From contig JBFMFH010000121.1 of assembly GCA_040752275.1 (NCBI GenBank), positions 10,849 to 74,848 of the forward strand: 64,000 nt of DNA, given 5' to 3'. Under the pieces are notes generated by a model. It saw only the letters and a list, made by a program, of their open reading frames with translations, was not told the DNA's origin and ran no database searches. This stretch comes from Acidobacteriota bacterium (GTDB taxonomy: Bacteria > Acidobacteriota > Vicinamibacteria > Vicinamibacterales > JAKQTR01). Within the stretch, counting starts at the first letter, position 1. Every line of letters starts with the position of its first letter. This document shows, piece after piece, positions 28,095 to 64,000 of the stretch. Made by a program: the position numbers and the translations under genes.

Positions 28095-28433
28095 TCAGGG
28101 AGCCTTGCCCTCGTTCTGCTCCTGGCGGGTGACGTTCATGACCGCAATGGCCCGGTTGCCGCCGCCCTCCTGCCGGTAGACCACGCGAACCATGTCGCCC
28201 ACCACCGGGCGGTTGCCAATCTCGGCGCTGGCGATGTCGAGCGCGAGCGGCGGCCCCTCCGGACGGGTCTCGTCCTGCACGGTGAGCATCTGGTTCTGGA
28301 TCGCGACGACCGTACCCTGGACGACGGGGGCCGGTGGGCCGCACGCCGTCGCGAGGAGTCCGATGCTGACGACAAAGACGGCGGGCAGCGGGCGGGGCCT
28401 GCCGCGCCGCGTCCTCGGGATAGAAGGCGTCAT
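28095..28433 (-). CDS. Small lipoprotein, trio copy A (paralogue of 59379..59690)
   Basis: Start MTPSIPRTRRGRPRPLPAVFVVSIGLLATAC at 28433. The mature part aligns with the other copy: QGxVVxxxxxxxxxxVxDE...GDxVRxxYRxxGGxxRAIxxMNxTRQ. Confidence 0.65.
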   Translation of the reverse strand: MTPSIPRTRRGRPRPLPAVFVVSIGLLATACGPPAPVVQGTVVAIQNQMLTVQDETRPEGPPLALDIASAEIGNRPVVGDMVRVVYRQEGGGNRAIAVMNVTRQEQNEGKAP

Positions 28434-28459
28434 GACCACGTTCTCCTCCGCCGCCAACG

Positions 28460-29485
28460 TCACGGCCTGTCGGCCGCTTCGCTCGGCCGCCGCAGTTCCT
28501 GGATGGCCCCGCGCACCATGCCGTAGACGACGACCATCGTCATGGCCGTGACGGCCGCCATCACCAGCCAGGCGGCCGACGTCCCCATGTCCAGCTGCTT
28601 GAGCACGACCGACACGAGCGCGCAGATGACGGTCACGCCGAACATCAAGCGGATGCCGTAGCCGCGGATGTACTTCGTCGCGATGGTCCCGATCTGGGCG
28701 CCGGGGGCGGCGCCGGCCAGCATGAAGAGCACGGCCAGCAGCTCCACGCGCCCCTTCATGGCATACGTGAAGGCGCCGTAGAAGCCCGAGAGCATCACCG
28801 TGAACAGATCGGTGCCTACGGCGACGTAGGTCGGCGCACCAATCAGGTACACGAGCGCCGGCATCATGATGAGGCCTCCGCCGATCCCGAGGAAGCCGGC
28901 CAGGATACCCACCAGCAGCCCGACGAGCGCCGGCAGCCACATCGAGCAGCGCACTTGTGCCACGTCGAAGGTCACGATGGGCGGGACGTTGATGCGGTGC
29001 AGCGTCAGATGCCACCGTACGGCCGACTCGCCCTCGCTCGCCATCCCCGTCCGTTCGAGGGTCCGCTTCTTGAAGTAGTCGTAGAAGACCAGACCGCCGA
29101 TCAGGGCCAGGAACACCACGTACACCCAGCGGATGACGGGGCCCGCTAAGCCGTGGCCCTCGAGCAGCATGACCAGTCTGGCGCCAATCTCGATGCCGAC
29201 CACGTCGAAAGCCAGCATCGTCAGGCCGAGCTTCATGTCGACATTACCGAACTTCGCATGCCGCCTCGTCGAGATGATCGACTTGCCGGCCATGTGACAG
29301 AGGTCGGTGCCCACGGCGAACGGCATCGGAAAGCCGAAGATGTTGAGGGCGGGCGTCACCATCCACGCGCCCCCCATACCGAAGAACCCGCCGAGCACCC
29401 CGACGGCGACGCCGAGCAGCGCCAGCAACAGGATGTTCACGGGCACACCCGAGATGGGCAGGATCACGGTGAAGAAGTCGAACAT
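28460..29485 (-). CDS. TauE/SafE (TSUP) permease, long subfamily, trio copy A
   Basis: 341 aa. GGFFGMGGAWMVTPALNIFGFP and GFLGIGGGLIMMPALVYLIG repeats. Colinear with 59856..60887 and similar to 41195..42298. Confidence 0.85.
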   Translation of the reverse strand: MFDFFTVILPISGVPVNILLLALLGVAVGVLGGFFGMGGAWMVTPALNIFGFPMPFAVGTDLCHMAGKSIISTRRHAKFGNVDMKLGLTMLAFDVVGIEIGARLVMLLEGHGLAGPVIRWVYVVFLALIGGLVFYDYFKKRTLERTGMASEGESAVRWHLTLHRINVPPIVTFDVAQVRCSMWLPALVGLLVGILAGFLGIGGGLIMMPALVYLIGAPTYVAVGTDLFTVMLSGFYGAFTYAMKGRVELLAVLFMLAGAAPGAQIGTIATKYIRGYGIRLMFGVTVICALVSVVLKQLDMGTSAAWLVMAAVTAMTMVVVYGMVRGAIQELRRPSEAADRP

Positions 29486-29506
29486 GGCGTTCTCCGTCGC
29501 GCGCTG

Positions 29507-29812
29507 CTATTCCCGGGAGTGGCGTTTTTCGAGGTCGAGGCCGATGGCACTCACCGCCACGTCCATCACCCAGCCGAGGAACAGACCGAGGATGGCCGTC
29601 AGGCCGACCGCAAAGATCGTGAACAGGAGCCGGTCGGTGTTGTACAGGTTGGCGACAAACAGGTTGAATCCCGACAGGTTCCGGGTGTCCGCCACGTGCA
29701 CGAGCTTGCCGGCCTTCTCGGCCGGCGCCGCCTCGAGGAGCGCGGGGTGGAGGGAGACCAGGACGCATGAGACCCAAAGCGTCAGCTGTGCCCGAAGCGA
29801 GCAAGGCGTCAT
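29507..29812 (-). CDS. Small signal-peptide plus C-terminal-TM protein, trio copy A (paralogue of 60915..61238)
   Basis: The likely start MTPCSLRAQLTLWV at 29812 has GGAGGT 7 nt upstream. Shares KLVxVADTR....NxYNT and a C-terminal TM helix with the other copy. Confidence 0.6.
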   Translation of the reverse strand: MTPCSLRAQLTLWVSCVLVSLHPALLEAAPAEKAGKLVHVADTRNLSGFNLFVANLYNTDRLLFTIFAVGLTAILGLFLGWVMDVAVSAIGLDLEKRHSRE

Positions 29813-31448: not shown

Positions 31449-31461
31449 GGGCGGGGCGCGT

Positions 31462-41186: not shown

Positions 41187-41194
41187 CGGGTGGG

Positions 41195-49900: not shown

Positions 49901-49920
49901 CGTCGTCGCACGACCTCTGC

Positions 49921-50079: not shown

Positions 50080-50103
50080 CCTCCGCCTCCCTCGGGCGGT
50101 CGG

Positions 50104-51904: not shown

Positions 51905-52156
51905 ATGGCTCCCTGGGGTCCACCCATCATGCCGGGTGACTGGACACCCATCCAAATCGGGATTGTCGATCAGATCGAACGGATCGCCCGCCGGCGCCCG
52001 TGCACACCCGCGCGGGTCTTCAGTGACACAGCTGGCGTCGTGGGGATCGACCGGCACGATGTGCTCGACCGTGGCGCAGGGCTGGACCTCGTCACCGGCA
52101 CCGAACGGGAGCCGCGCTTCGGCCTCACAGGCGAAGCAGGCCCGGTGTGGTCATGA
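51905..52156 (+). CDS. Possible small protein (75-83 aa) translationally coupled to PpsL-4
   Basis: Part of track ORF 51812..52156. ATG candidates at 51905 and 51929. Its TGA (52154-52156) overlaps the PpsL-4 ATG (52153) as ATGA. High third-position GC. I recognise no family resemblance. Confidence 0.3.
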   Translation: MAPWGPPIMPGDWTPIQIGIVDQIERIARRRPCTPARVFSDTAGVVGIDRHDVLDRGAGLDLVTGTEREPRFGLTGEAGPVWS

Positions 52157-54711
52157 AACTGGCAGATCTGCGGCGGGCGTTTCGCCGCCGGGAGCGGCCT
52201 CCCCTCGAATTGCCGGCACGCGTGTCCTACTGCCGTGAGGTGCTGCAAGCCAACAACGCGGCCCTCGGCTATCTGGCCCAGATCCAGGAGACGCTCGCCG
52301 GCACGGACCCGCTCCCGGCTGGTCAGGTCCGTCGCCTCGTGGCCGGAGTGATGACCCAGACGTTCCGGATGATCGTCAACCTGAGCCGGATCACTGGAGG
52401 GCGTTTCGGCGAAGTGGAGTCGCGGTTCCGGCAGATCAAGGCGTCACTGGCCAGGAGTGTCGAGGTGCCGGCCGACGCCGGCGACGTGGGCTACACCGTC
52501 GGCCTCGATCGGCTCGACGCGTCGTTCGCGGAGGTGGTCGGCCAGAAGAGCGCATTCCTCGGAGAGGCCCGCCGGTGGCTGCCGGCGCACGTGCCGCACG
52601 GATTCGCCACGTCGGTGACCGCCTACCGGGCCTTCATGGACCACGACGGCCTCGGCGCGCGGGTTGCCGAGATCCTCGAGCGGGGCGGGATGGGGGATGT
52701 CGCAAGCTGTTTCGAGCTCTCGGCGGACATCGTACGTCTCGTCGAAGGCGCTCGGGTCCCCGCCGACGTGGCCGGCGCCATCGCAGCATCCCTCGACGCC
52801 ATTCCTGGAGGAGATGCGCGGCGCTTCGCCGTGCGATCGAGCGCCCTCTTGGAGGGCGGGGCCGAGATGTCCTTCGCCGGGCAGTATCGGTCGTGCCTGA
52901 ACGTCCCTCCCGACGGCGTGGTCGACGCCTTCAAGCGGGTGATCGCCAGCAAGTACTCGCCCGAGGCCATTTCGTATCGCGCACTGCGGGGGTTCGACGA
53001 CGAAGACGTCGCCATGTGTTGCTGTGTCATCGAGATGGTCGACGCCGTGGCCGCCGGGGTCCTCTACAGCTCGTGTCAGGGTGAGACAGAGCCGACGACG
53101 CTCGTCCAGGCCGTGAGAGGCCTCGGCCTCGCGGCCGTGGATGGGTCGGCAGAGCCGGACTCGTACACGGCCGGCTGCCAGACGAAGCGCATGCTCGGCA
53201 CGAGGTTGGGGCGCCAGGCCTCTCGCATCGTGGGCGCGCCGCACGAGGGAACGGTGCGCGAGGCGATCGCGCCCGGAGACGGTTCGTCTCCAGTGCTCGA
53301 CGAGTCACAGGTGCTCGGGCTTGCGGGGCTCGCCTGGGCCCTGCAACCCCGTCTCGGCACCCCCCTCGACATGGAATGGGCAATCGGGCGAGACCGGCGT
53401 TTCGTCATCCTCCAGCTGAGGCCGCAGCCCGTGGAGATGGTGCGAGGCGCGAAGCCGCTCCAGCGGCGCGTGGTTGGCTACCGGATCCTGTTGGAAGGGG
53501 GATCGGTCGTCTCCCCCGGGGTGGCGTCCGGCCCCGTCTGCCACGTCGAGAGCGATCTCGACATGCTCAGGTGCGGGAAGGGCGCCGTCCTGGTGACCAC
53601 CGAAGCGAGCCCGCGCCTGGCCGTCCTCCTGCCCAGAGTGGCCGCCGTCGTCGCAGACCTCGGAGAAGTGACCGGGCACCTGGCTGCTGTCGCACGCGAG
53701 CTGAAGGTGCCGGCCCTGTTCGCCACCCGCGCGGCGAGTACGGCGCTCGCAGCAGGCGCGATGGCGACGGTCGATGCCGAAGCAGCCGTTGTGTACGAGG
53801 GCCGCGTGGTCGAACTGGTCGATGTGCCGCCGCCGCCGAGCCTCGTCCGGACGATCGATCCGAACAGGGCGCTTCTCGCGTCCGTCGCCGACCGGATCGT
53901 ACCGCTGACGCTGAAGGACCGGCTGGCCAGCGGCTACACGCCTGCGCGATGCCGGTCGCTGCACGACATCATCCGGTTCTGCCATCAGGCCACGATCGAG
54001 GCCATCTTCGATCTTGGTGACCGGGCACTGCACCGCAACGAAGGGCTGCGGCGCCTGGTCACCGACGTGCCAATCGATTGCCGGTTGTTCGATCTCGGCG
54101 GCGGGTTCAGCGACAACTTGCCGGCGGGCGACATCCGCATCGAGGACGTCACGTGCCGCCCCATGCGGGCCTTGTGGCGGGGGATGACCGATCCCCGCGT
54201 GGTGTGGCGGGCCTCGCGGCCAGTGTCCTTGACGGGACTGGCGTCCGCGCTGGTCAACTACAACCTCGACCACGACCAGCGGATGCGGAATCTGGGTGAG
54301 CCGTCCTACGCGTTCGTCACCGCCGATTACCTGAATCTGAACTCACGGGTTGGCTATCATTTCACCACCGTGGACGCGCGACTGGGCGAGGCGTCCGAAT
54401 CCAACTACGCGTCCCTGCGCTTCGTGGGCGGCTCGACGGGCGTCGACCAGCGGTCCCGGCGCGCGGCGCTGATCCGGCGCCTGCTCGAGGCCTACCGGTT
54501 CGAGACGGACTGCCGCGTGGATCTCGTCAATGCCCGAATCCGTCACCGGCCACCGGCCGAGATGGAGGAGGCACTCGCACGGGTCGGCCGCCTGCTCGGC
54601 TACGTCAATCACCTCGACATGGCCCTGACCTCTGAGGCCGCTGTTGCCGAGTACGAAGCGGCGTTCCTCCGGGGCGACTACCACTTCAAGGGGAGCAGTC
54701 TCCATGACTGA
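52153..54711 (+). CDS. Atypical PpsA-like protein PpsL-4
   Basis: VGQKSAFLGEA..VPHGFAT, AVRSSALLEGGAEMSFAGQY, and swivel ADLGEVTGHLAAVARELKVPAL with the His codon at 53677-53679. Shares the N- and C-domain motifs. The start is ATG 52153 or GTG 52147. Confidence 0.8.
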   Translation: MKLADLRRAFRRRERPPLELPARVSYCREVLQANNAALGYLAQIQETLAGTDPLPAGQVRRLVAGVMTQTFRMIVNLSRITGGRFGEVESRFRQIKASLARSVEVPADAGDVGYTVGLDRLDASFAEVVGQKSAFLGEARRWLPAHVPHGFATSVTAYRAFMDHDGLGARVAEILERGGMGDVASCFELSADIVRLVEGARVPADVAGAIAASLDAIPGGDARRFAVRSSALLEGGAEMSFAGQYRSCLNVPPDGVVDAFKRVIASKYSPEAISYRALRGFDDEDVAMCCCVIEMVDAVAAGVLYSSCQGETEPTTLVQAVRGLGLAAVDGSAEPDSYTAGCQTKRMLGTRLGRQASRIVGAPHEGTVREAIAPGDGSSPVLDESQVLGLAGLAWALQPRLGTPLDMEWAIGRDRRFVILQLRPQPVEMVRGAKPLQRRVVGYRILLEGGSVVSPGVASGPVCHVESDLDMLRCGKGAVLVTTEASPRLAVLLPRVAAVVADLGEVTGHLAAVARELKVPALFATRAASTALAAGAMATVDAEAAVVYEGRVVELVDVPPPPSLVRTIDPNRALLASVADRIVPLTLKDRLASGYTPARCRSLHDIIRFCHQATIEAIFDLGDRALHRNEGLRRLVTDVPIDCRLFDLGGGFSDNLPAGDIRIEDVTCRPMRALWRGMTDPRVVWRASRPVSLTGLASALVNYNLDHDQRMRNLGEPSYAFVTADYLNLNSRVGYHFTTVDARLGEASESNYASLRFVGGSTGVDQRSRRAALIRRLLEAYRFETDCRVDLVNARIRHRPPAEMEEALARVGRLLGYVNHLDMALTSEAAVAEYEAAFLRGDYHFKGSSLHD

Positions 54712-56386
54712 GCGCATCAGCCGGCCGTACCGCCGCCTGGCGAGCCAGATGCTGATGGTGCTACTCGCGTTCGGACTCGTTCCGCTCGTGGTGATGGGGA
54801 TCGCGGGGTTCGCCGCCCAACTCAACGCCGTCGAGACTCGGACGCGAAACGTCCTCGAGGCCATGGTCAAGAACCGCCGGGCCACCGTCGAGCTCTTCCT
54901 CGAAGAGAAGCGCCGGCAGCTGGAGTTGGTGGCGGCGGCGGCGCCCGTGAGCGAGCTGGGCAAGCCGGCGGTGATCGAAATGCTGCGGGACCAGTTGCGC
55001 AGCGAACACGGAGCGATTGTCGATCTCGGCCTTATCGACGACACCGGCCGCCATGTCGTGTATGTGGGGCCCTACAGCCTGCAGGACCTGAACTACTCGG
55101 ACCAGCCGTGGTTCGAGCAGGTCATGGTCCGCGGCCACTACGAGAGCGACATCTTCATGGGGTTCCGCCGGTTTCCGCACATGGTTATGGCGGTCAAGAA
55201 GCGCGAACAGGGGCGGGTGTGGATACTGCGGGCCACTATCGACACCGACCAGCTCAGCGACTTGGTCCGGGAGGGCGGGCTCGAGTCGGGCGCCGACGTC
55301 TTCGTGCTCAACCGCGCCGGCGAGTACCAGACGCGCTACTCGGCGGAACACCGGCTCATGGAGCGGGCAGATCTCCCGGTTCCGCCCCTCCACTCGGGCG
55401 TGCGGGTGATCGACTACGCTAAGCACGGCGCGCGCGAGTTCGTCGCCACGGCGTGGCTCCGCAATGACAACTGGGTCCTGGTGGCCCGGCAGCGCGTGCC
55501 GGGATTCCTGGCGCTTGTCGTCTCGAGCCCGATCGTCACGATCGTGTTCGTGGCGGGCCTCCTGCTCGTGCCGCCGTTGTCTCTCTTCGTGGCCCGCCGC
55601 CGCCTGAGCCAGATCCGCGGCCTCGAGCGGGAGCGGGCGGAACTCTACCAGTCGGTGGCTCAGTCCGAGAAGATGGCCACCATCGGCCGGATGGCCGCAT
55701 CGATCGCCCATGAGATCAACAATCCGTTCGCAATCATCCAGGAGCAGGTCGGAGTGTTGACCGACGGACTGGCCGACGCAGGCGGGGTACCGGACGCCGA
55801 GTTGCGCGACCGCCTCCGGAAGATCGAGGCCCAGATCCAGCGCGGCCGGGGCGTGACCCATCGGCTGCTGGGCTTCTCGCGGCGTCTGGGCCCTGGCGTC
55901 GAGCCGATTGACGTCGCCGAGGCACTCAACGAGACGCTGAACTTCTTGGCCAAGGAGGCCGAGGCCTCCAACATCCAGATCGTCCGCGACTACGACAAGG
56001 ACGCCCCGCTCATCCGCTCCAGTGTGGCGCAAATGCAGCAGGTCTTCCTGAACCTGATCAATAACGCGATCGACGCCGTCGGGCGCGATGGTGAGATCCG
56101 ACTGTCAGTGAGACGGGACGGCGATGGTGTCGCCGTCGCCGTCGCCGACAACGGTCCGGGCATCCCCGCCGCACTGCGCGACCGGGTCTTCGACCCGTTC
56201 TTCTCGACCAAGACGGGCCCGACGCACAACGCGGGTCTGGGTTTGGCCATCTGCCGCGAAACAATGTTGGCGCTTGGCGGCCGGATCGAGATCGACAGCC
56301 GGATCGAGAGAGGGACACGGTTCATTGTCTGGTTCCCGACGATACCGCCCGGTGAGACGAACCGGCTTGCGCGCGCGCATGCGTGA
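54704..56386 (+). CDS. Sensor histidine kinase with a Cache/PDC-like extracytoplasmic domain (tentative), HK-4
   Basis: The ATG at 54704 overlaps the PpsL-4 stop by 8 nt. TM1, a ~250-aa sensor (DDTGRHVVYVGPY...DQPWFEQV...VFVLNRAGEY), then TM2. H-box ASIAHEINNPFAI. VADNGPGIP. Confidence 0.85.
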   Translation: MTERISRPYRRLASQMLMVLLAFGLVPLVVMGIAGFAAQLNAVETRTRNVLEAMVKNRRATVELFLEEKRRQLELVAAAAPVSELGKPAVIEMLRDQLRSEHGAIVDLGLIDDTGRHVVYVGPYSLQDLNYSDQPWFEQVMVRGHYESDIFMGFRRFPHMVMAVKKREQGRVWILRATIDTDQLSDLVREGGLESGADVFVLNRAGEYQTRYSAEHRLMERADLPVPPLHSGVRVIDYAKHGAREFVATAWLRNDNWVLVARQRVPGFLALVVSSPIVTIVFVAGLLLVPPLSLFVARRRLSQIRGLERERAELYQSVAQSEKMATIGRMAASIAHEINNPFAIIQEQVGVLTDGLADAGGVPDAELRDRLRKIEAQIQRGRGVTHRLLGFSRRLGPGVEPIDVAEALNETLNFLAKEAEASNIQIVRDYDKDAPLIRSSVAQMQQVFLNLINNAIDAVGRDGEIRLSVRRDGDGVAVAVADNGPGIPAALRDRVFDPFFSTKTGPTHNAGLGLAICRETMLALGGRIEIDSRIERGTRFIVWFPTIPPGETNRLARAHA

Positions 56387-56426
56387 GGCGGTTTTCGAAA
56401 CAACCCGCGAGAGGTGGAGGTACGAC

Positions 56427-56813
56427 ATGGCCGATCTGAGGTTGCTCCTGGTCGATGACGAGCCGGACTTCCTCGAGCCGCTCTGCACGCGGCTGACCCG
56501 CCGGCGGGTCGCGTGCGCCACCGCCGCCAGCGGGGAGGAGGCCCTGCAGGCGCTCGCGGACAGCCGTTTCGACTGCGCAGTCGTCGACGTCAAGATGCCA
56601 GGCATGGACGGCCTCGAGCTGCTGCGTCGGATCCGGCGTGACCACCCGGGCACCCCAGTGGTGCTGCTCACGGGTCACGCCTCGGTCGAGATGGGCGTGC
56701 AGGGCATGGAGCTCGGCGCCTTCGACTACCTGCTCAAGCCCGTCGATCTCGACGAGCTGCTCGACGTCGTGCGTCGGGCCGCCGAACAGCCCCGCGAACC
56801 CGGTTTGCCGTGA
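56427..56813 (+). CDS. Receiver-only response regulator, RR-4
   Basis: MADLRLLLVDDEPDF with GGTGGAGG upstream. AVVDVKMPGMDG, DYLLKP. Its stop overlaps the PpsL-5 start (GTGA). Confidence 0.88.
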   Translation: MADLRLLLVDDEPDFLEPLCTRLTRRRVACATAASGEEALQALADSRFDCAVVDVKMPGMDGLELLRRIRRDHPGTPVVLLTGHASVEMGVQGMELGAFDYLLKPVDLDELLDVVRRAAEQPREPGLP

Positions 56814-59353
56814 CACCACGTCCGGACTCGGGCGGGACGGGCGGCCGGCTCAAGGCGGCATGGCAGGCCCTCGTCTCCCGCGCCGCGCAGGCGCCTCCCA
56901 CTGCCGACATGGCGCGGATTCGGCTGATGTACGAGCGGTTTCGCGAGATCCTGGCCGGCAATGACGCCACACTCCAGCTGATTGCCGAAATCGATGAGTG
57001 TCTCGCCGGACGGGCGGTCTTCACCCTCGAGAGCCTCGTGCGGCAGATTCACAAGGCGGAGATGCACGTCTTCGTCATGGTGAAGAACCTGAACCTGCTC
57101 TCCGGCAACGCCCACGGCGGCCTCTACGCGAGATTGCGGGAACTCTCGGCCGAGATCGCGGCGATGAGCCCCTTGTCTGGGGACGCGCCGGAGCAGGCTG
57201 AGGTCATGGCGCTCGAGGATATCCGCCTCGACCGGGCGTTGCTGGTCGGATCGAAAATCGCGCGGCTAGGCGAGGCCAGGGCGCGTGCGGGCGTCACCGT
57301 GCCCGAGGGGTTTGCGATCACCACGGCTGCGTTCTCCGCCTTCATGTCGGCGAACGGCCTCTGGGAGCGCGCGGCGCATCTCGAGGACTTGGTGCAGACC
57401 CGGGGCGACGCGTCCGCCGTGGCGCTCGCCTGCCAGGAAGTGCAGCGGGCGATTCTGGGGGCGCCCGTCCCGGAACGCATCGTCGGAACCATCACCGGCG
57501 CATTTGATCACCTCGCCGAGGGGACCGACCTGCGCGTTGCCATGCGGTCGAGCGCTGTTGGCGAGGATACCTACGTGTCACATGCGGGCCAGTACCATAC
57601 CGAGTTGGGCGTGAGGCGCGAAGGCTTGCTCGACGCGTATCGCGCGGTCATCGCCAGCGCCTATGGCCGTGCGGCCATCTTGTACCGATTCGAACACAAG
57701 ATGGGCACCCGCGAGACGGCCATGGCCGTCGGCTGCCTCCGCATGCTCGACCCCCGGTGCAGCGGCGTCATGTTCACGCGCCGGCCCGACGCGCCAGACA
57801 TCGACGCGGTGGTTGTGGCTGCGGTGCCCGGCCTCGCATCCGCCCTGGTCGCCGGCGAGCAGGACGCACACGTCTGGATCACCGGGGACGATCCCCGGAC
57901 ACCGGCGAGCACGCTGCTCACACCGGACGACCTCTCCGGTCTGTCTGCCATCGCACGCCGCCTCGAATCGTGTCTCGGCGGGCCGCAGGAAGTGGAGTGG
58001 GCCATCGAACGGGCAGGCCCAATCGTCGTCGTCCAGAGCCGCGCGCTCATCGCGACGCAGCGCACGCCCGTTCAGGACACGCCCATCAGCGACGAACCGC
58101 CGCTCCTGGCCGGCGGGCTGACCGCGTGCCCCGGTGTTGGGGCGGGACGCGTGGTGCAGGTGGCGCGAGAGGATGATCTCGATGCGTTTCCTGACCGGGG
58201 CGTGCTCGTCGCCCGGCAGGCGCTCCCGATGTACTCGCGGATCTTGTCTCGGTGCGCCGCCATCGTTACGGACATCGGATCGCCGGCGGGGCACATGGCC
58301 AGCCTGGCCCGCGAGTACGGCGTTCCGGCTCTCGTCGGCTGCGGGGAGGCCACGTCGGTGCTGCTGGCGGGAATGCCGGTCACCGTGGACGCCACGCGGG
58401 CACAGGTGTTCTCCGGATTGCTGGCCGCGTCGGAGTCCGCGCCGGCGCGCCCGGCGCCTGCGGCAGACGCGCCGGCCGTTCAGGCGCTCAGACGGATCGC
58501 CCGCCTGATCACCCCGCTCTCGCTCACCGATCCCGCCAATCCGGTTTTCCGCCCCGCGTCCTGCCAGTCACTGCACGACATCGCGCGCTATGTGCACGAG
58601 AAGACCTTTGAGGTTGTGTTCCACTGGGGCGATGTGAACTGGGGCGATACGCGCCATGCCCGCCGGTTGCAGGTGCATCTGCCGTTGACGATCGATGTCA
58701 TCGACGTCGGGGGCGGGATCAGAGACGCCGGCGCGCGCCGCGATGACGAGCCGCACGCAGGGCCGGCGGCGGGAAGCGCCGGCGCGCCGGGCATCGGTGT
58801 CGAGGATGTGCTCTCAGTGCCCTTCCGCGCGCTGCTCTCCGGCATGCTGGACGCGCGCATCCGGTGGGATCGGCCCCGGCCGCTGTCGGCCCGCGGGTTT
58901 CTGGCCGTGGTTGGGGAACGGATGGCCGGTTTGCCCGGCGAAGCGCTCGGGGTGGGCGGTGCGTCCTACGCTATCGTGTCGGATCGGTACCTGAACTTCT
59001 CGACCAAGGCCGGCTATCACTTCGCCACCATCGACACCTACTGCGGGCACAGCGTCAACAAGAACTACATCCACTTCCGTTTCGCGGGCGGCGCCGCGGA
59101 CGGCGCCCGTCGAGAGCGGCGGGTGCGCTTGATCGCCAGTGTCCTTGCCAGCCTCGATTTCAAAGTGCAGACGCGAGGCGACCTCCTGGTGGCTCGGCTG
59201 GGTCAGTTCGACCAGGCGACGCTGCTCGCGAGACTGGAGGACATGGGTCGGCTCTGCATGTGCACGCGTCAGCTCGACATGCTGATGGACACGGAAGGCA
59301 GCCCCGAGTTCTTCGCCCGGGCGTTTCTCGCCGGCCAGCTCGATCGCTTCTGA
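56810..59353 (+). CDS. Atypical PpsA-like protein PpsL-5
   Basis: VGSKIARLGEA..VPEGFAI, AMRSSAVGEDTYVSHAGQY, and swivel TDIGSPAGHMASLAREYGVPAL with the His codon at 58292-58294. Shares the N- and C-domain motifs. Confidence 0.8.
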   Translation: MTPRPDSGGTGGRLKAAWQALVSRAAQAPPTADMARIRLMYERFREILAGNDATLQLIAEIDECLAGRAVFTLESLVRQIHKAEMHVFVMVKNLNLLSGNAHGGLYARLRELSAEIAAMSPLSGDAPEQAEVMALEDIRLDRALLVGSKIARLGEARARAGVTVPEGFAITTAAFSAFMSANGLWERAAHLEDLVQTRGDASAVALACQEVQRAILGAPVPERIVGTITGAFDHLAEGTDLRVAMRSSAVGEDTYVSHAGQYHTELGVRREGLLDAYRAVIASAYGRAAILYRFEHKMGTRETAMAVGCLRMLDPRCSGVMFTRRPDAPDIDAVVVAAVPGLASALVAGEQDAHVWITGDDPRTPASTLLTPDDLSGLSAIARRLESCLGGPQEVEWAIERAGPIVVVQSRALIATQRTPVQDTPISDEPPLLAGGLTACPGVGAGRVVQVAREDDLDAFPDRGVLVARQALPMYSRILSRCAAIVTDIGSPAGHMASLAREYGVPALVGCGEATSVLLAGMPVTVDATRAQVFSGLLAASESAPARPAPAADAPAVQALRRIARLITPLSLTDPANPVFRPASCQSLHDIARYVHEKTFEVVFHWGDVNWGDTRHARRLQVHLPLTIDVIDVGGGIRDAGARRDDEPHAGPAAGSAGAPGIGVEDVLSVPFRALLSGMLDARIRWDRPRPLSARGFLAVVGERMAGLPGEALGVGGASYAIVSDRYLNFSTKAGYHFATIDTYCGHSVNKNYIHFRFAGGAADGARRERRVRLIASVLASLDFKVQTRGDLLVARLGQFDQATLLARLEDMGRLCMCTRQLDMLMDTEGSPEFFARAFLAGQLDRF

Positions 59354-59378
59354 GGACGGGCCCCTCTTCAGCCTATCG

Positions 59379-59690
59379 TCAGTGGGCTCCGCCCTTCTTG
59401 GCCAGCTCTGCCTGACGTGTCAGATTCATCATCCGGATGGCGCGCTTCTCTCCGCCCGCGACCCGATACGCCAGGCGCACCAGATCGCCCGGCGCGGGCA
59501 ACACCCCGATGTCGGCGCCTGCGAGAGAGAAGGCCACTTCTTCGCTGGGCGGGATCTCGTCCTTGACCACGACCGTGGCTGCGGCCTGGTCGTAGCTGAC
59601 GACGACGCCCTGCAGCACGAGGGGGCGGTCGCCGCACCCGGCGCACGCGGCCAGCGCCGCGCCGACAAGCAGGATCGTGAACAACTTCAT
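59379..59690 (-). CDS. Small lipoprotein, trio copy B
   Basis: Start MKLFTILLVGAALAACAGC (lipobox LAAC) at 59690 with GGGGGAGA upstream. The mature part aligns with 28095..28433. Confidence 0.7.
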   Translation of the reverse strand: MKLFTILLVGAALAACAGCGDRPLVLQGVVVSYDQAAATVVVKDEIPPSEEVAFSLAGADIGVLPAPGDLVRLAYRVAGGEKRAIRMMNLTRQAELAKKGGAH

Positions 59691-59802
59691 CGTCTCCCCC
59701 TGGACGTCTCGAAAGCCGACGGTGTTTGCAGATGAGTCAAGGTTCTCTGCGGCCTTCAAGACGTCTCGCCCCGCCGGAGGCAGGGCAACACCAACACTGT
59801 GA

Positions 59803-59860
59803 TCTAGCGAGGCGGAGCCCGCAAGCACATGCTTCCGGTCCGAGGCGGAGCCTCGCTAGA
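59803..59860. other. 11-bp perfect inverted repeat (TCTAGCGAGGC ... GCCTCGCTAGA) with an internal GAGGCGGAGCC direct repeat, spanning the TauE-4 stop codon
   Basis: Read directly: left arm 59803-59813, right arm 59850-59860, GAGGCGGAGCC at 59809-59819 and 59842-59852. The corresponding spacer in trio copy A is only 26 bp and lacks this element. Confidence 0.6.
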
Positions 59861-60887
59861 GGTTCAGGCTCATGCCGGCGCGCCTGGCGGCGCGCTCGTG
59901 CCGGACACCCTTGACGAGCCAGCCGATGATGACCAGCGAAATCGCGCCGCCGGCCGTCAGAATGGTGATCGACGACGCCAGTTGCAGGCTGAGCTGTTTG
60001 AGGACGACCGATGCGCAGGCGATGAAGATGGTGACCGCAAACAGCAACCGAATCGAATAGCCTTTGACGTACTTGACCGCCACGGTGCCGAGCTGGGCCC
60101 CGACGCTGGCGCCGAGCAGCATCCACATCGCGGCCAGGAGGTCGACGCGTCCCTTGATTCCGTAGGTGAACGCTCCGTACGCGCCGGTGATCATAACCTC
60201 GAAGAGGTCCGTGCCGACCGCAACAGCCGTCGGACAACCGATCAGGTAGATGAGGGCCGGCATGCGGATGAACCCGCCGCCGACGCCGAGCACTGCAGCG
60301 ACGATGCCAGTGGTGAGCCCGACGAGGATCGGCAGCCACAGCGAGCACGTCATGCCGGAGGCCGGGAAGTGGATCATTGGCGGGATGCGCATCCGCTGGA
60401 GGCGCCGGGCGAAGGTCTCGGGCTCGGCCGGCACGCCGTCTGAGATCTCCTGGTAGCGCCGCCGGCGCGTGTGGTTGATGTAGTCGTAGAGCACGTACGA
60501 CCCGATAAAGGTCAGGAAGACGATGTAGGCGATTCGGATGTAGGACTCGGCCAGGCCCGCCCGCTCGAGCGCCATCACCAGCGTCGCCCCGAGTTCCATC
60601 CCGACGGTAGTCCCGATGATCATGGACACACCGAGCTTGATATCGACGTTGCCGAACTTACCGTGCCGGATGGTCGAGACAATCGACTTGCCGCCCATAT
60701 GAGCCAGGTCGGTCCCGATGGCATACGGCATCGGGAAGCCGAAGATGTTGAGCGCGGGCGTCACGATCCAGGCGCCGCCGATGCCAAAGAACCCGCCGCA
60801 GACCCCGACCGTGAAGCCGATGAGCAGAAGGATGAGGACGTTGAAATCGAGACCTGCAATCGGCAGGTAGACGTTCAAGAAGTCCAT
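59856..60887 (-). CDS. TauE/SafE (TSUP) permease, long subfamily, trio copy B
   Basis: 343 aa. GGFFGIGGAWIVTPALNIFGFP and AVLGVGGGFIRMPALIYLIG. Colinear with 28460..29485. Confidence 0.85.
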   Translation of the reverse strand: MDFLNVYLPIAGLDFNVLILLLIGFTVGVCGGFFGIGGAWIVTPALNIFGFPMPYAIGTDLAHMGGKSIVSTIRHGKFGNVDIKLGVSMIIGTTVGMELGATLVMALERAGLAESYIRIAYIVFLTFIGSYVLYDYINHTRRRRYQEISDGVPAEPETFARRLQRMRIPPMIHFPASGMTCSLWLPILVGLTTGIVAAVLGVGGGFIRMPALIYLIGCPTAVAVGTDLFEVMITGAYGAFTYGIKGRVDLLAAMWMLLGASVGAQLGTVAVKYVKGYSIRLLFAVTIFIACASVVLKQLSLQLASSITILTAGGAISLVIIGWLVKGVRHERAARRAGMSLNL

Positions 60888-60914
60888 GTGGAACGCTCCC
60901 CCTCGTGTCCGCCG

Positions 60915-61238
60915 CTACTCGTGGTGTGCGATCCGGCCGAGGTTGATGCCAAGCAGGCCGACGAGCCTGTCGGTGACCAGGCCGAGGATGAGCCCCATCG
61001 CCACCATGGTGACGACGACGAGCGCGCCGAACCACCACAGGTTGGTGTTGTAGACGTCGGCGATCCACCGGCCCAGGCCGGGGTCCATGGCGCGCGTGTC
61101 GGCCACGTTGACGAGCTTCGTCGCCGGCTTGGCCGGAGCAGCCAGCACCGCGCCGGACGCCAGGATCCACGCGAACCAGGCGCCCGTCAGGGTCCGGCGC
61201 CACGCGGGCGACCCTCTCTGTGTGTCCCTCGTGTTCAT
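60915..61238 (-). CDS. Small signal-peptide plus C-terminal-TM protein, trio copy B
   Basis: Start MNTRDTQRGSPAW at 61238 overlaps the RR-5 stop (ATGA). Has KLVNVADTR and a C-terminal TM helix, as in 29507..29812. Confidence 0.6.
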   Translation of the reverse strand: MNTRDTQRGSPAWRRTLTGAWFAWILASGAVLAAPAKPATKLVNVADTRAMDPGLGRWIADVYNTNLWWFGALVVVTMVAMGLILGLVTDRLVGLLGINLGRIAHHE

Positions 61239-61672
61239 GATCCAGCTCCCTCTCTCGTTCCGTTGGCGTGCGCATCGCCGGAGGCCGGATGCCCGACCGC
61301 CGTGACGATCGCGGCGCACAGCGTGTCGATGTCCGCGGGCTTCTGCAGGAAGTCTGCCGCCCCGATCTGCATCCCGTCGATGCCGCTTTCCACCGTCCCA
61401 TGGCCGGTCAGTACGATCACACGCACGGATGGTGTGCGCCGCCGCACCCGGCGCAACGTCTCCAGCCCGTCGGTGCCAGGCATCTTCAGGTCAAGGACCA
61501 ACACGTCCGCCTCGCCGGCTTCGGCGCGGCGGACTGCGTCCTCTCCGGTGAACACGGCGTCAGCGGTAAAGCCTCGCCGCTGGAGCCGTGACGCCAGCGC
61601 CGTGGCGAAGTCGACTTCGTCGTCCACCACGAGCACTCTGATCGGTGCGAACGCGGGGTCCGAGACCGCCAC
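61235..61672 (-). CDS. Receiver-only response regulator, RR-5
   Basis: GTG start with AGGAGG upstream. IRVLVVDDE, LVLDLKMPGTDG, DFLQKP. No output domain. Confidence 0.85.
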   Translation of the reverse strand: MAVSDPAFAPIRVLVVDDEVDFATALASRLQRRGFTADAVFTGEDAVRRAEAGEADVLVLDLKMPGTDGLETLRRVRRRTPSVRVIVLTGHGTVESGIDGMQIGAADFLQKPADIDTLCAAIVTAVGHPASGDAHANGTREGAGS

Positions 61673-61765
61673 TCGCCCTCCTTCGGCACCGGCACGCCTG
61701 TCTATGGCGCGGCGGCCCTGAGCGCGACTCGTCGGGCAGAGACGTCTGGCCGACCCTTTGCCCGT

Positions 61766-62572
61766 CTATACGTCGATGTCCGGAGCCACTTCCAGGCGCA
61801 CATCGGTCACGCCCGCGACGTCGTGCACGATCGCCTCGACCTCGGTGAACTGCACGCCTGGCGACAGCCGTCCCCTGATGGTGACCGAGCCGTGGCGGGC
61901 GACGACGGCCACCTCGAGGTCAGCGGTGCGCGGCGCCCGCGCCAGCGTCGCTCGGACGCGGCTGGCCAGGACGAGGTTGTCCATCGCCGCCTGGCTTTCG
62001 ACCGTCTCGGCAAAGTACGGCATGGCCGCTGCTGACGCGATCAGGTCGCACGCGCCCGGGATGTCGATGGACGCCAGATTCACCACGACGTCGTAGAGCG
62101 AGGGATCGCCCCAGTCGACGCCGTAGAGATACTGGGTCCACTTCTGCCGGTCCTGGTCCATCTGCTGGACGTGGGCCAGCGCCTCGGCTTCGCTCAGTTT
62201 GCGGCGGTCCTGGACCGCCGCAACGCGGTAGGCCATCGACGCGATGATGCGCGTCCGCAGGACGTGGCTCACCCCGCGCAGCAGCAGGTGCCCGGCGTTG
62301 CCATGGTAGACGGCCTTGCCGTGCTGCACTTCTTCGGTCAATGCTGCCTGGATCAACGTGAGATAGACGTAGCGCTTGTGGCGGAACCGGTCCCAGAACG
62401 AGGGCGGCTTCGCCAGCGCGTCGTGGAGTTCTTCCTGCGGCACGCCGTAGGCGGCGGCCCGCTCCACGATCACGTCCCGGTCGATACACCGGTATCCCAG
62501 CTTGTCGGCCAGACACCCGCCGAGCATCTTGCCGCCGCTGAACGACCCTCTCGAGATAGTGATCACTGCCAT
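61766..62572 (-). CDS. Cytidylate-kinase-like (Cytidylate_kin2) + BON domain protein, copy 2
   Basis: 268 aa starting MAVITISRGSFSGGKML. Gapless alignment to 46472..47278, and the first ~50 nt are nearly identical at the DNA level. BON-like C-terminus EVAVVARHGSVTIRGRLSPGVQFTEVEAIVHDVAGVTDV. Confidence 0.7.
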   Translation of the reverse strand: MAVITISRGSFSGGKMLGGCLADKLGYRCIDRDVIVERAAAYGVPQEELHDALAKPPSFWDRFRHKRYVYLTLIQAALTEEVQHGKAVYHGNAGHLLLRGVSHVLRTRIIASMAYRVAAVQDRRKLSEAEALAHVQQMDQDRQKWTQYLYGVDWGDPSLYDVVVNLASIDIPGACDLIASAAAMPYFAETVESQAAMDNLVLASRVRATLARAPRTADLEVAVVARHGSVTIRGRLSPGVQFTEVEAIVHDVAGVTDVRLEVAPDIDV

Positions 62573-62620
62573 CGGTGCTGTCCTCGTTCTTCCCGCGCTC
62601 TGCCGCTCAGCGCGCCCGCA

Positions 62621-63262
62621 TCATTCTGCCGCCCCTGCCTCATCCAGGAGCGCCGTCATCAGGTCTCCGGCCCGAGCCTCGTCCCCGGACGCGATGGCCT
62701 CGACGAACCCGGCATCGATGAGCGTACTGATGGAGCGCCGGATCCGGGCCGAGTCCCAGCCCGCGTCCATCAGCCGCTCGCGAAGGCGGCCCAACCGTTC
62801 GACGGCCTGTTCGTACTCCGGACCGAACTGCCGCTCGAGACGCTCGCGCAGCACCCGGGCCAACGACGGGCACTGGCCGTCGGTCGCAACGGCCACCGTC
62901 AGGAGCCCGCGGCGGACGACGGCCGGAACCGTGTAGGTGCACAGGGCCGGGCGGTCCACGATGTTTACGAGCGCGCCCCAGACGCGTGCGTCCTTCGCCA
63001 CCTGTCGGTTGACGTCGTCGTCATCGGTGGCCCCGACGACGAGGAACGCCCCGCGGGCGTCTCCCGGCTCGAACCGGCGGCGGACCACTTCGATCCGTCC
63101 GTCGCGCTCGAGTTGGATCACCGCATCCCCGATCTCCGGAGCGATCACCGTCACCGCGGCGCCCGCGTCCGCGAGCGCGGCGATCTTGCGGCCGGCGACC
63201 GAACCTGCTCCGACGACGAGCGCCGGGCGGCCTTGCACGTCGAGGTTGACCACATAGCCCAT
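62621..63262 (-). CDS. Precorrin-2 dehydrogenase / sirohydrochlorin ferrochelatase (SirC / CysG N-domain-like)
   Basis: Start MGYVVNLDVQGRPALVVGAGSVAGRKIAAL at 63262. Rossmann motif and TVAVATDGQCPSLAR, typical of siroheme synthase N-terminal domains. Confidence 0.75.
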   Translation of the reverse strand: MGYVVNLDVQGRPALVVGAGSVAGRKIAALADAGAAVTVIAPEIGDAVIQLERDGRIEVVRRRFEPGDARGAFLVVGATDDDDVNRQVAKDARVWGALVNIVDRPALCTYTVPAVVRRGLLTVAVATDGQCPSLARVLRERLERQFGPEYEQAVERLGRLRERLMDAGWDSARIRRSISTLIDAGFVEAIASGDEARAGDLMTALLDEAGAAE

Positions 63263-63269
63263 CGTCCCG

Positions 63270-64000
63270 TCACCCTCCGGACCCGGCAGCGCCGCACCGG
63301 GACCCGCCGAGCTTTTCCCGCAGGCGGACCACGTCACCGACGACGAGCGTCGCGGGTGCCGGAACGCCGGCCGCCTCGACGAGGTCGGCGATCGTACCCA
63401 GGGTTCCCGTGACGATCTGTTCGTCGTCCCAGAACGCCGCGTGGATGACCGCCGCCGGCGTCGATGCCGGGCGACCGTGCTCCATCAGCCGTCCGGTGGT
63501 GCGCCGCAGGCTCTGCAGCGCCATCACGAAGACCAGCGTCGGCATTCGACTGAGCGCCTCCCAGTCGAGCTGGCTGTCTCCATCCTGCAGTTCGTGGCCG
63601 GTGGCGAATGCCACGCACGAGGCGACTCCGCGGTGCGTGACTGGAATCAGCGCTCTGAGGGGAGCCGCAACCGTGGACGACACCCCCGGCACGACCTCGA
63701 AGGGCACCCCGTGTTCGGCCAGCGCCTCAGCTTCCTCGCCGCCGCGACCGAACATGAAGGGGTCGCCGCCCTTCAGCCGCACGACCATCTTCCCCTCGCG
63801 GGCCTTGGCCAGGAGGATCTCATGAATGCGGTCCTGCTGGGTGACGGGGCCGCCGATGATCTTCCCCACGAACACGCGCTCGGCTCCTGGCCTCGCGCGC
63901 GACAGCACGTGTTCCTGGATCAGCCGATCATAGACGATGACGTCGGCCGCCTCGATGAGCGAGGCGGCGCGCACGGTGAGCAGGTCCGGGTGACCCGGCC
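63270..64000 (-). CDS. cobA: Uroporphyrinogen-III C-methyltransferase (SUMT); N-terminus beyond the right edge
   Basis: GPGHPDLLTVRAASLIEAADVIVYDRL, RLKGGDPFMFGRGGEE and VVPGVSS motifs. The reading frame continues to position 64000. Confidence 0.88.
   Translation of the reverse strand, partial: PGHPDLLTVRAASLIEAADVIVYDRLIQEHVLSRARPGAERVFVGKIIGGPVTQQDRIHEILLAKAREGKMVVRLKGGDPFMFGRGGEEAEALAEHGVPFEVVPGVSSTVAAPLRALIPVTHRGVASCVAFATGHELQDGDSQLDWEALSRMPTLVFVMALQSLRRTTGRLMEHGRPASTPAAVIHAAFWDDEQIVTGTLGTIADLVEAAGVPAPATLVVGDVVRLREKLGGSRCGAAGSGG

Follow-up and report, generated by a model that had tools for sequence, protein, structure and literature searches.

The closest described relative of the locus studied here is the DVU0150-DVU0145 cluster of Desulfovibrio vulgaris Hildenborough, which comprises the small protein DVU0150, the membrane protein DVU0149, the lipoprotein DVU0148 and a co-directional response regulator, DVU0145, and which is induced in syntrophic co-culture (PMC4265775; PMC4641369). 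The cluster is sigma-54 dependent with DVU0151 as its activator (PMC4641369). In D. thermophilus, a PEP-synthase/TM/TauE trio is co-induced in thiosulfate disproportionation (PMC13490349). The members of one strongly conserved subfamily of TSUP permeases are candidates for sulfate or sulfite transport in sulfate-reducing and related bacteria, and a dedicated, translationally coupled receiver provides a concrete and testable handle on the permease trio described below.

The window, which is the whole 64,000-nt stretch of DNA that was analysed, holds two copies (A and B) of a trio of genes encoding a small membrane protein, a TSUP permease and a lipoprotein. In copy B the trio is preceded by the gene of a response regulator (RR), RR5, and the locus is arranged as follows.

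59379..59690, minus strand: lipoprotein, 103 aa, lipobox Cys at residue 19 (alignment, AF2, Foldseek)
59691..59855, minus strand: structured intercistronic spacer of 165 nt (inverted repeat, RNA fold)
59856..60887, minus strand: TSUP/TauE permease, 343 aa (PF01925)
60915..61238, minus strand: DVU0150-family small membrane protein, 107 aa (NF040783, alignment, hydropathy, PGAP start)
61235..61252, minus strand: translational-coupling junction with a GAGGGAG Shine-Dalgarno at 61252-61246, a 7-nt gap and an ATGA overlap at 61238-61235 (sequence)
61235..61672, minus strand: RR5, single-domain response regulator, 145 aa (PF00072)
61766..62572, minus strand: cytidylate-kinase-like (CMK-like) and BON protein, 93 nt upstream of RR5 (PF13189 and BON)

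By alignment and gene order, the rr5, dvu0150-like, tsup and lipoprotein genes form a conserved four-gene operon in this Acidobacteriota (probably Vicinamibacterales) MAG, and sequence matches identify this module as a homologue of the D. vulgaris cluster. The published DVU0149 primer translates to KFGNVDY, which corresponds to the HGKFGNVD motif of the window TSUP permease, and the DVU0150 HMM matches the window small protein. The two loci differ in the position of the response regulator, which is distal in D. vulgaris, after DVU0146, whereas RR5 lies upstream and is overlapped by the trio. They also differ in that the sigma-54 promoter and activator of D. vulgaris have no counterpart found at the window trio. 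Matches in a sigma-54 search of the 64-kb window were no commoner than chance, with no -24/-12 element upstream of either trio. No DNA-binding regulator was found at the copy B locus and no EBP gene flanks it.

RR5 begins at a GTG codon with a AAGGAGGG Shine-Dalgarno sequence 5' of it, and its sequence is identical to an NCBI MAG protein (P0121). Residues 13-122 match the Pfam HMM PF00072 with 99.2 bits (gathering cut-off 30.2, E 1.9e-28) and are followed by a 23-aa low-complexity tail only, without an output domain, in agreement with the initial annotation, which had described RR5 as a receiver lacking a DNA-binding domain. The residues of the phosphorylation pocket are the acid pair D17/D18, the phospho-acceptor D61, T89 and K111, and this D-D-D-T-K set was observed to be at least 90% retained among 20 sequences of the RR5 clade. 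All of the 120 best RR5 homologues carry PF00072 as their sole domain and are 124-195 aa long. The longer homologues were considered as possible fusions and rejected, as their extra length comes from N-terminal start miscalls, and a Rosetta-stone search of RR5 homologues found no fusion of a response regulator to DVU0150 or TSUP. Judged by these residues and domains, RR5 is a competent, phosphorylatable, output-less receiver of a dedicated clade. Single-domain response regulators work by protein-protein contacts. With an intact pocket and no output domain, RR5 would therefore exert its output through protein contacts or phosphate flow.

At the boundary between RR5 and the small protein, the plus-strand tetranucleotide tcat (61235-61238) reads ATGA on the minus strand, where the RR5 stop codon TGA (61237-61235) overlaps the ATG of the small protein (61238-61236) as had been proposed. 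The Shine-Dalgarno sequence of the small protein sits within the RR5 coding sequence, 7 nt upstream of the start. NCBI PGAP calls the same 107-aa product (MEW5984732.1), which speaks against a wrong start call, and the next in-frame Met, M50, would delete the signal peptide and a conserved motif of the small protein. A single 4-nt ATGA overlap is ordinary in compact bacterial operons, and translational coupling is typical for subunits produced in a fixed ratio. Our alignments show that an (A/G)TGA overlap preceded by GGAGG is retained, despite variable RR tails, in 15-16 of the 19 orthologous loci compared, which represent several phyla, and a 4-nt overlap was seen in five of six RR5 homologues sampled blind, with independent gene calls. 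Because the junction is retained in both sets, the link between RR5 and the trio is considered to be more than chance. The overlap, the internal Shine-Dalgarno sequence and their conservation thus support the earlier claim that RR5 and the trio are one translationally coupled unit, as read from the sequence.

The small protein scores 60.8 bits against NF040783, which is below the curated cut-off of 70, although the E-value is 1.3e-16 and the alignment spans positions 5-92 of the 99 in the model; orthologues at its position carry PF28216 DVU0150. Alignment and hydropathy give it a single TM helix besides the signal peptide, with a KLVNVADTR...YN motif on the periplasmic side and, on the cytoplasmic side, a conserved C-terminal tail that ends in LG.xLG+..HHE; this tail was found to be equally conserved in loci without a response regulator. 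The TSUP permease matches PF01925 with 155.6 bits (gathering cut-off 32.6, E 2.3e-45); it has more than 6000 homologues, was compared across 80 genome loci and is 76-94% identical between phyla. Its central loop (residues 134-184) is Arg-rich with eight K/R residues, and its C-terminus is also K/R-rich. By the positive-inside rule the loop is probably cytoplasmic, so docking of RR5 there is topologically possible. A residue-tracking search of the TSUP and small proteins yielded T140 as the sole TSUP column separating RR5-linked from RR5-free loci, and this single column was too weak to be taken as a docking site.

The lipoprotein starts at 59690 with a GGGGGAG Shine-Dalgarno sequence in front. 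It has a signal peptide and a lipobox (MKLFTILLVGAALAACAGC, followed by G) with a Cys that is invariant in 16 sequences, and lipidation is predicted. The other invariant residues are D29, E30, M73, N74, T76 and R77. Its mature domain is predicted to form a CusF-like five-stranded OB fold (AF2 pLDDT 84.6), and the best Foldseek matches of the model are CusF (E 1e-4, TM 0.66-0.79). Trp is missing from the mature protein, whose single His is the C-terminal residue and whose Met residues occur only in RMMNL. A PDB sequence search found no relatives of either the lipoprotein or the TSUP permease.

Between permease and lipoprotein, the 165-nt spacer and its perfect inverted repeat were found as previously described, compared with 26 nt in copy A. 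The arms of the 11-nt repeat lie at 59803-59813 and 59850-59860, the right arm covering the TSUP stop codon. The spacer RNA folds with an MFE of -87.4 kcal/mol (z = -4.77) into hairpins at 59859-59804, which holds the repeat and the stop codon, at 59788-59766 and at 59765-59703, the last of which ends 2 nt short of the lipoprotein Shine-Dalgarno sequence. Elsewhere this gap ranges from -4 to +53 nt, with 114 nt in locus L002 and 9 nt in L001, and the spacer sequence was found in none of 90 loci. L001 is the closest relative. The spacer is not a family feature, and locus comparison identifies it as a lineage-specific insertion. A repeated element of the REP or MITE kind was considered and rejected, as the motifs are no commoner than chance in the window and the spacer is missing from those 90 loci. 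No terminator-like site (a GC hairpin with a U-tract) and no Rfam family was matched in the spacer, and scanning 59200-62700 for sigma-70 promoters and terminators revealed nothing usable. The spacer probably only tunes lipoprotein expression or mRNA stability.

The order small protein, TSUP permease, lipoprotein is shared by both window copies and by 42 of 45 copy-B-type loci. A response regulator lies directly 5' of the small gene in half of the copy-B-type loci (22 of 44) and is of the RR5 type in 18 of these 22; response regulators in this position occur in Acidobacteriota, Anaeromyxobacter/Myxococcales, Planctomycetota, Acidithiobacillales and NC10. In a neighbour-joining (NJ) tree one clade of them is sister to the clade of response regulators found 5' of a PpsA-like gene. 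The synteny comparison suggested earlier was borne out, as nearly every RR5 orthologue has the trio beside it: the orthologues form one clade directly upstream of the trio in 18-19 genomes of at least five phyla, and in blind sampling from the RR side all six RR5 homologues (59-70% identity) were followed by PF28216 DVU0150 and TauE genes. An unrelated second RR clade is found at this place in L052, L060, L061 and L066, which belong to another TSUP clade. About half of the orthologous trios have no response regulator, and L003, a close relative, retains only a 15-aa RR remnant; RR5 is therefore considered to be an accessory component.

The remaining genes needed for the argument are given below.

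28095..29812, minus strand: trio copy A, with the small protein at 29812..29507, TSUP at 29485..28460 and the lipoprotein at 28433..28095 (tblastn)
30008-31069 and 31041-31448, divergent from copy A: HKa and RRa, then two PpsA-like genes up to 36686
54644..56386, plus strand: HKb, a dCache-HisKA-HATPase histidine kinase (Pfam)
56424..56813, plus strand: RRb, a receiver-only response regulator of the sister clade of RR5 (45% identical to RR5, NJ tree)
56810..59353, plus strand: PpsA-like (PEP-synthase-like) dikinase with ATP-grasp, phospho-His swivel and a C-terminal domain of ~290 aa (Pfam)

The small protein, TSUP permease and lipoprotein of copy A are 35, 55 and 41% identical to those of copy B by tblastn. 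The initial annotation had placed copy A divergent from a histidine kinase (HK)/RR pair, and the coordinates agree. The same divergent layout was observed in five other loci (L056, L067-L069 and L077) and, together with the second RR clade, it makes the receiver-to-trio link a recurrent one. HKb is a candidate cognate kinase of RR5 from its distribution, as an HKb-type kinase was found in 10 of 14 loci with RR5 and in two of 18 without it (Fisher p = 0.0008, a statistic that ignores kinship); four RR5-type loci with full flanks present have no such kinase nearby. RRb and the PpsA-like gene share a GTGA stop/start overlap, and the latter gene is convergent on the trio. PDB sequence matches of the PpsA-like protein are restricted to residues 128-540; its C-terminal domain has an AF2 pLDDT of 60 and gave nothing below E 0.1 in Foldseek. 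A 1406-aa paralogue has a 670-aa N-terminal extension without a Pfam domain. The window also contains the dissimilatory-sulfur genes aprBA, H+-PPase and siroheme genes.

The model that fits these observations best, and which we favour tentatively, is that phosphorylated RR5 gates the transporter post-translationally. The three downstream products would form a tripartite transporter made up of the TSUP permease, an accessory subunit with a single membrane pass and, in the periplasm, the CusF-like lipoprotein, and its solute would be small and, judged from the genomic context, probably a sulfur oxyanion. RR5 would be a detachable regulatory subunit of this transporter, binding its cytoplasmic face at the Arg-rich central loop or at the ...EHHE tail of the small subunit to gate transport. 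The recurrent linkage, the conserved junction, the co-occurrence with HKb-type kinases, the RRb overlap, the K/R-rich permease segments and the lack of a DNA-binding regulator or sigma-54 promoter found at the locus speak for this model. The failed fusion search, the trios that lack a response regulator, the small-protein tail that is conserved equally in such loci, the lone T140 column, the four loci without an HKb-type kinase and the transcriptional control of the D. vulgaris cluster speak against it. A periplasm-sensing dCache kinase, either HKb or a relative encoded elsewhere, may phosphorylate both sister receivers, and RRb may act on the adjoining PpsA-like dikinase. One signal could then bring about uptake or export together with cytoplasmic ATP-dependent processing, without new transcription. 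This wider scheme, where RR5 and RRb are split-output receivers coupled to their own effectors and one periplasmic signal switches transport and ATP-dependent processing of sulfur compounds, is more doubtful than the gating of the transporter itself. The alpha-1 specificity regions of the two receivers are unlike (DFATAL in RR5, eFLEPL in RRb) and a common kinase is therefore not assured.

Single-domain response regulators are also known as sinks or relays, as with Spo0F and CheY1 of S. meliloti. RR5 might likewise serve several receivers and kinases as a sink or shuttle for phosphate, in a network with a transcriptional output through a DNA-binding regulator encoded elsewhere and an operon position that provides expression-proportional feedback. 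Strings of receivers and kinases are indeed common, with an RR-HK-RR-HK-RR order in L052, L060, L061 and L066 and additional RR/HK pairs in L002, L010, L033 and L034; an NtrC-type response regulator adjoins the trio in L085, and transcription of the D. vulgaris counterpart depends on a sigma-54 activator (PMC4641369). However, neither an Hpt protein nor a DNA-binding response regulator is conserved beside the module, and L086-L088 hold a response regulator and the trio with neither a kinase nor a further response regulator nearby. Moreover, a sink needs no coupling to the first membrane subunit, yet this coupling is the conserved part. We consider the role of a sink to be unlikely on balance, although it is the most serious competitor of the gating model.

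The partner of RR5 may instead be cytoplasmic, either the PpsA-like dikinase or the CMK-like/BON protein, with co-transcription serving joint expression only. No neighbour of the trio is more conserved than the PpsA-like gene, which was found within 7 kb of it in 30 of 35 loci, and RRb, the dikinase's own receiver, is sister to RR5. In the four loci with the second RR clade, one response regulator is followed by small protein, TSUP and PpsA-like genes on the same strand, and the CMK-like/BON gene recurs directly 5' of RR5 (L001-L004, L033 and L081). This reading is quite improbable, as L010, L014, L023 and L086-L088 combine an RR5-type receiver and the trio with no PpsA-like gene within 4-10 kb, and the conserved overlap joins RR5 to the membrane subunit and not to the dikinase. 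The last reading, which puts the overlap and adjacency down to the usual tight packing of operon genes or to a wrong start call, can appeal to the frequency of such overlaps in compact operons and to the dispensability of RR5 in many relatives, but it is largely refuted and very improbable given the linkage found from the RR side in all six samples, the single RR clade upstream of the small gene, the cross-phylum junction and a start backed by the Shine-Dalgarno sequence, PGAP and orthologue alignment.

If gating by RR5 is true, a transporter would be added to the few known proteins on which single-domain response regulators act directly, and response regulators would gain a target of a new kind, a secondary transporter; to our knowledge, no characterised single-domain response regulator has such a target. 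Under the wider scheme, the function of the highly conserved TSUP clade found in sulfur-cycling bacteria, and that of the DVU0145-0150 cluster induced in syntrophy, would become approachable for the first time.

By analogy, the proposed arrangement resembles GlnK-AmtB, where the PII protein GlnK closes the ammonium channel AmtB: in both, a small cytoplasmic signal protein shares an operon with a transporter, which RR5 would gate after covalent modification. The components are unrelated (PII versus receiver, Amt versus TSUP), and binding is proven for GlnK-AmtB and predicted for RR5. RR5 shares the intact D-D-D-T-K pocket and the lack of an output domain with CheY-type single-domain response regulators, but its clade is dedicated to the transporter operon and has no chemotaxis context. 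The window lipoprotein, by its modelled OB fold, is comparable to CusF as a small periplasmic partner of a membrane transporter; it differs in its low identity (14%), in the missing Cu(I) ligands (His, two Met and Trp) and in its predicted lipid anchor. A large permease combined with a small membrane subunit, a periplasmic component and an adjoining two-component system is also found in TRAP DctPQM and in TTT TctCBA with TctDE, although three unrelated families are involved and the periplasmic part in the window is only ~85 aa, which makes it too small for a classical solute-binding protein. Finally, the permease resembles TauE/SafE and the TSUP 'highly conserved clade B' of sulfate reducers (DVU2958; Marietou et al. 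2018, PMC5840216) in its PF01925 domain, its very high cross-phylum conservation and its dissimilatory-sulfur context, and is distinguished from them by its two dedicated accessory subunits.

The small membrane protein of trio copy B (a DVU0150-family small protein, a TauE/TSUP permease and a lipoprotein) was proposed in the initial annotation to have a start codon that overlaps the stop codon of a receiver-only response regulator (RR5), in an operon set apart from copy A by its long spacer, and every detail of that observation was found to be correct. The RR5 stop TGA (61237-61235) overlaps the small-protein ATG (61238-61236), and a GAGGGAG Shine-Dalgarno sequence for the small gene is located 7 nt upstream of this start, within RR5. 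The start call holds, with identical 107-aa, 343-aa, 103-aa and 145-aa products present in the NCBI annotation of the source contig (90 kb, from an Acidobacteriota MAG), and RR5 is indeed receiver-only, having just a 23-aa tail beyond its receiver domain. Copy A is divergent from its kinase/regulator pair, and its 26-nt spacer compares with 165 nt and a perfect inverted repeat in copy B. Copy B is also convergent with a stretch at 52147-59353 that encodes a PEP-synthase-like (PpsA-like) dikinase, a dCache histidine kinase (HKb), a sister receiver (RRb) and a second PpsA-like protein.

Features of the window
61672..61235, minus: RR5, receiver-only response regulator, 145 aa; GTG start behind AAGGAGGG; PF00072 at residues 13-122, E 1.9e-28
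61238..60915, minus: small membrane protein, 107 aa
60887..59856, minus: TauE/TSUP permease, 343 aa, 27 nt after the small gene; PF01925, E 2.3e-45
59690..59379, minus: lipoprotein, 103 aa, 165 nt after the permease; GGGGGAG Shine-Dalgarno ahead
29812..28095: trio copy A, spacers of 21 and 26 nt, divergent from a kinase/regulator pair at 30008-31448
31312-34122, plus: PpsA-like paralogue
34038-36686, plus: PpsA-like paralogue
47315-51535, minus: PpsA-like paralogue
52147-54711, plus: PpsA-like paralogue
56810-59353, plus: PpsA-like paralogue
23551-25905, minus: AprA and AprB; APS-reductase C-terminal domain, E 1e-35
44219-46435, minus: membrane H+-pyrophosphatase
62621-63974, minus: siroheme-synthesis genes (CysG N-terminal domain, uroporphyrinogen-III methyltransferase)

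A genome scan with the TSUP alignment gave 80 loci, onto which the window proteins were mapped; 49 are copy-B-type (72-94% identity) and 31 lie at 50-57%, the best relative (L001) being from a Vicinamibacterales MAG. The small gene precedes the permease in 79/80 loci and the lipoprotein follows it in 42/45 copy-B-type loci. Of the 44 copy-B-type loci with enough flank, 22 have a response regulator as the gene just ahead of the small gene, and 18 of these 22 are RR5-type (55-75% identical), spanning Acidobacteriota, Anaeromyxobacter/Myxococcales, Planctomycetota, Acidithiobacillales and NC10. A regulator is missing from half of the orthologous trios. An (A/G)TGA overlap with GGAGG ahead was observed in 15-16 of 19 RR5-type junctions, where one of the 16 (L004) has a downstream ATG with its own Shine-Dalgarno sequence as an alternative start. 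The exceptions are an 8-nt overlap (L002) and a 16-nt gap (L017), and in L006 GAGATGA is also present with an ambiguous regulator frame. The junctions are kept while the regulator tails vary. From the receiver side, six RR5 homologues (59-70% identity) on long contigs were chosen without regard to context, and in all six a PF28216 gene and a TauE gene follow directly, with the 4-nt overlap in five by independent gene calls. RR5 orthologues are therefore not unlinked from TSUP genes; unlinked orthologues were the outcome named in the initial annotation as refuting its claim, and that refutation fails. In the close relative L003 (85% TSUP identity), only the last ~15 residues of RR5 are recognisable upstream of the small gene, as the C-terminal helix KPIDLDTLCAAILTAAEP (E 9e-6; ~9560-9605, between the cytidylate-kinase-like/BON and small genes), which looks like decay of the receiver gene with the translation-initiation region of the small gene spared.

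Receiver domains from the loci, 97 in all, were placed in a neighbour-joining tree, in which every regulator that precedes the small gene at a copy-B-type locus groups with RR5 in a single clade; the full D-D-D-T-K pocket is retained across this clade. The best 120 RR5 homologues are all receiver-only, and the alignments show the clade as dedicated, output-less receivers with a predicted phosphorylatable pocket. Its sister clade, which includes RRb (56424-56813), holds receivers directly upstream of the PpsA-like gene. A second, unrelated clade of regulators precedes the small gene in four loci of the other TSUP clade (L052, L060, L061 and L066); receivers have therefore come to stand before the transporter on more than one occasion. 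These four loci carry a same-strand string of cytidylate-kinase-like/BON, regulator, kinase, regulator, second kinase, regulator, small, TSUP and PpsA-like genes without the lipoprotein, which runs from ~5 kb upstream of TSUP through its downstream gene and looks like one large operon joining signalling, transport and dikinase genes. A cytidylate-kinase-like (PF13189) plus BON protein (61766-62572, minus, in the window) recurs across loci (L001-L004, L033, L052, L060, L061 and L081), where its gene either comes just before the receiver or heads the receiver/kinase strings.

The trio, like the small-TSUP module across the 80 loci, has the PpsA-like protein as its most conserved neighbour, ahead of any two-component gene. 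The PpsA-like gene is found no more than 7 kb away in 30/35 copy-B-type loci, mostly in convergent orientation immediately behind the lipoprotein, and in many 50-57% loci it takes the place of the lipoprotein on the same strand. The protein contains an ATP-grasp domain, a phospho-His swivel domain with a GxxxGH[ML]A..ARE motif and a shared C-terminal domain of ~290 aa, which had no match in Pfam or the PDB and whose invariants are C..LHD..R..H, DxGGG and NY..F.GG; no recognisable domain was found in the 670-aa N-terminal extension of the 1406-aa paralogue. The RRb stop overlaps the dikinase start (GTGA), as in 6/10 orthologous junctions, and the sister receiver is predicted to be coupled to a dikinase-like enzyme. 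RR5 is statistically associated with the dCache kinase, the presence of HKb-type kinases tracking RR5 (10/14 vs 2/18 loci, Fisher p = 0.0008, phylogenetic kinship ignored).

The small protein matches NCBIfam NF040783 'DVU0150 family' (E 1.3e-16, 60.8 bits against a curated cut-off of 70), and Pfam PF28216 'DVU0150' is present in its orthologues from other loci. Across 80 homologues it comprises four regions: a cleavable-looking signal peptide, a conserved periplasmic motif (KLVNVADTR...W.A..YN), a single transmembrane helix and a cytoplasmic tail (...LG.xLGK.EHHE-COOH; 60915-60971) conserved to its final residue in both TSUP clades, equally with or without a regulator gene at the locus. The lipobox Cys of the lipoprotein is invariant, and its AlphaFold model (pLDDT 84.6) best matches the OB fold of CusF (E 1e-4, TM 0.66-0.79), a periplasmic metallochaperone whose metal ligands are missing here. 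The permease shows extraordinary conservation: homologues number >6000, and identity is 76% or higher for each of the best 120. A PDB search gave no solved relative. Its central loop (residues 134-184, 8 K/R) and C-terminus (5 K/R) are probably cytoplasmic. From these features we read the trio as a putative tripartite TSUP transporter, with a periplasmic lipoprotein, a single-pass subunit and a permease.

The copy-B spacer (59691-59855) contains a perfect 11-nt inverted repeat (59803-59813/59850-59860), the right arm of which lies over the TSUP stop codon. Its RNA (59862..59691) folds far better than shuffled sequences (MFE -87.4 kcal/mol, z = -4.77) into three or four stable hairpins, including 59859-59804, 59788-59766 and 59765-59703, the last stopping 2 nt short of the lipoprotein Shine-Dalgarno sequence. 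Neither a U-tract terminator nor an Rfam match was found, and no further copy of the sequence occurs in the window or in any of 90 loci. The same spacer measures -4 to +53 nt elsewhere, only L002 having a long one (114 nt, unrelated), and 9 nt in the closest relative L001, relative to which the window carries a ~156-nt insertion. Judged by this comparison, the spacer is a private insertion and not a property of the system; it plausibly tunes lipoprotein translation or mRNA stability.

Four TauE genes and five PpsA-like paralogues are found in the window, near aprBA, H+-pyrophosphatase and siroheme-synthesis genes, which form a dissimilatory-sulfur context. The cytidylate-kinase-like/BON gene and RR5 come directly after the siroheme genes, in a CobA-CysG-CMK/BON string common to L001-L003. 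At 25942-27712 (minus), adjoining aprBA, a TauE gene of a second type (26789-27712) forms a pair with a gene for an Alph_Pro_TM protein (PF09608, 25942-26808). There is a weak resemblance between the DVU0150-like protein and the transmembrane C-terminal end of PF09608 (E 0.062), which hints that TSUP permeases in general may pair with a related single-pass accessory subunit. At 38538-42739, the fourth TauE gene (inside ORF 41195-42739) faces, in convergent orientation, two receiver genes (~38550-38882 and ~39126-39437) plus a HAMP-HisKA-HATPase kinase (39573-41186). Two-component genes therefore adjoin three of the four window TSUP genes.

Taken together, the loci show rr5/dvu0150-like/tsup/lipoprotein to be a conserved operon with predicted translational coupling. 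This observation is solid, and from it we infer the central mechanistic claim. The dCache kinase would sense a periplasmic ligand and phosphorylate both receivers, upon which RR5~P would bind the cytoplasmic face of the transporter and gate it while RRb~P would act on the dikinase. We put this joint model at slightly under an even chance. Limits on the role of RR5 are set by the trios that lack a regulator, by its apparent decay in L003 and by the small-protein tail, conserved whether or not a regulator is there. Also, T140, where the central loop begins, is the sole permease column that separates RR5-linked from RR5-free loci (83% vs 17%), and no regulator-transporter fusion was found among the homologues examined. 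Alternatively, RR5 may act as a phosphate sink or relay within a network of several receivers that ends in transcriptional control; this seems unlikely yet deserves weight. That RR5 targets the dikinase or the cytidylate-kinase-like/BON protein, and not the permease, is more doubtful still. Trivial operon packing or a start miscall is highly improbable.

The trio corresponds to DVU0150/DVU0149/DVU0148 of Desulfovibrio vulgaris Hildenborough, as identified through the literature (PMC4265775, PMC4641369), and the peptide encoded by a DVU0149 primer from the literature, KFGNVDY, agrees with HGKFGNVD, a motif of the copy-B permease. That cluster, described as 'without any functional annotation', is induced in syntrophic co-culture and has the response regulator DVU0145 in the same transcription direction (PMC4265775); it is a predicted sigma-54 operon with DVU0151 as activator (PMC4641369). 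A comparative study put forward the TSUP proteins of a 'highly conserved clade B', DVU2958 among them, as candidates for sulfate transport in sulfate reducers (PMC5840216), and in Dissulfuribacter thermophilus adjacent 'PEP synthase', 'transmembrane protein co-occurring with TauE' and TauE genes rise jointly during thiosulfate disproportionation (PMC13490349). The uncharacterised DVU0145-0150 cluster, its regulator and the NCBIfam and Pfam 'DVU0150' families were already known. New are a clade of dedicated RR5-type receivers in which the start/stop overlap is conserved, the placement of this clade as sister to the dikinase-coupled receiver, the cross-phylum breadth of the RR5-trio linkage and the predicted CusF-like fold of the lipoprotein. 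The finding opens a testable way into a transporter family that is important yet lacks any assigned function, and the proposed control of the transporter by RR5 would resemble GlnK-AmtB in logic only.
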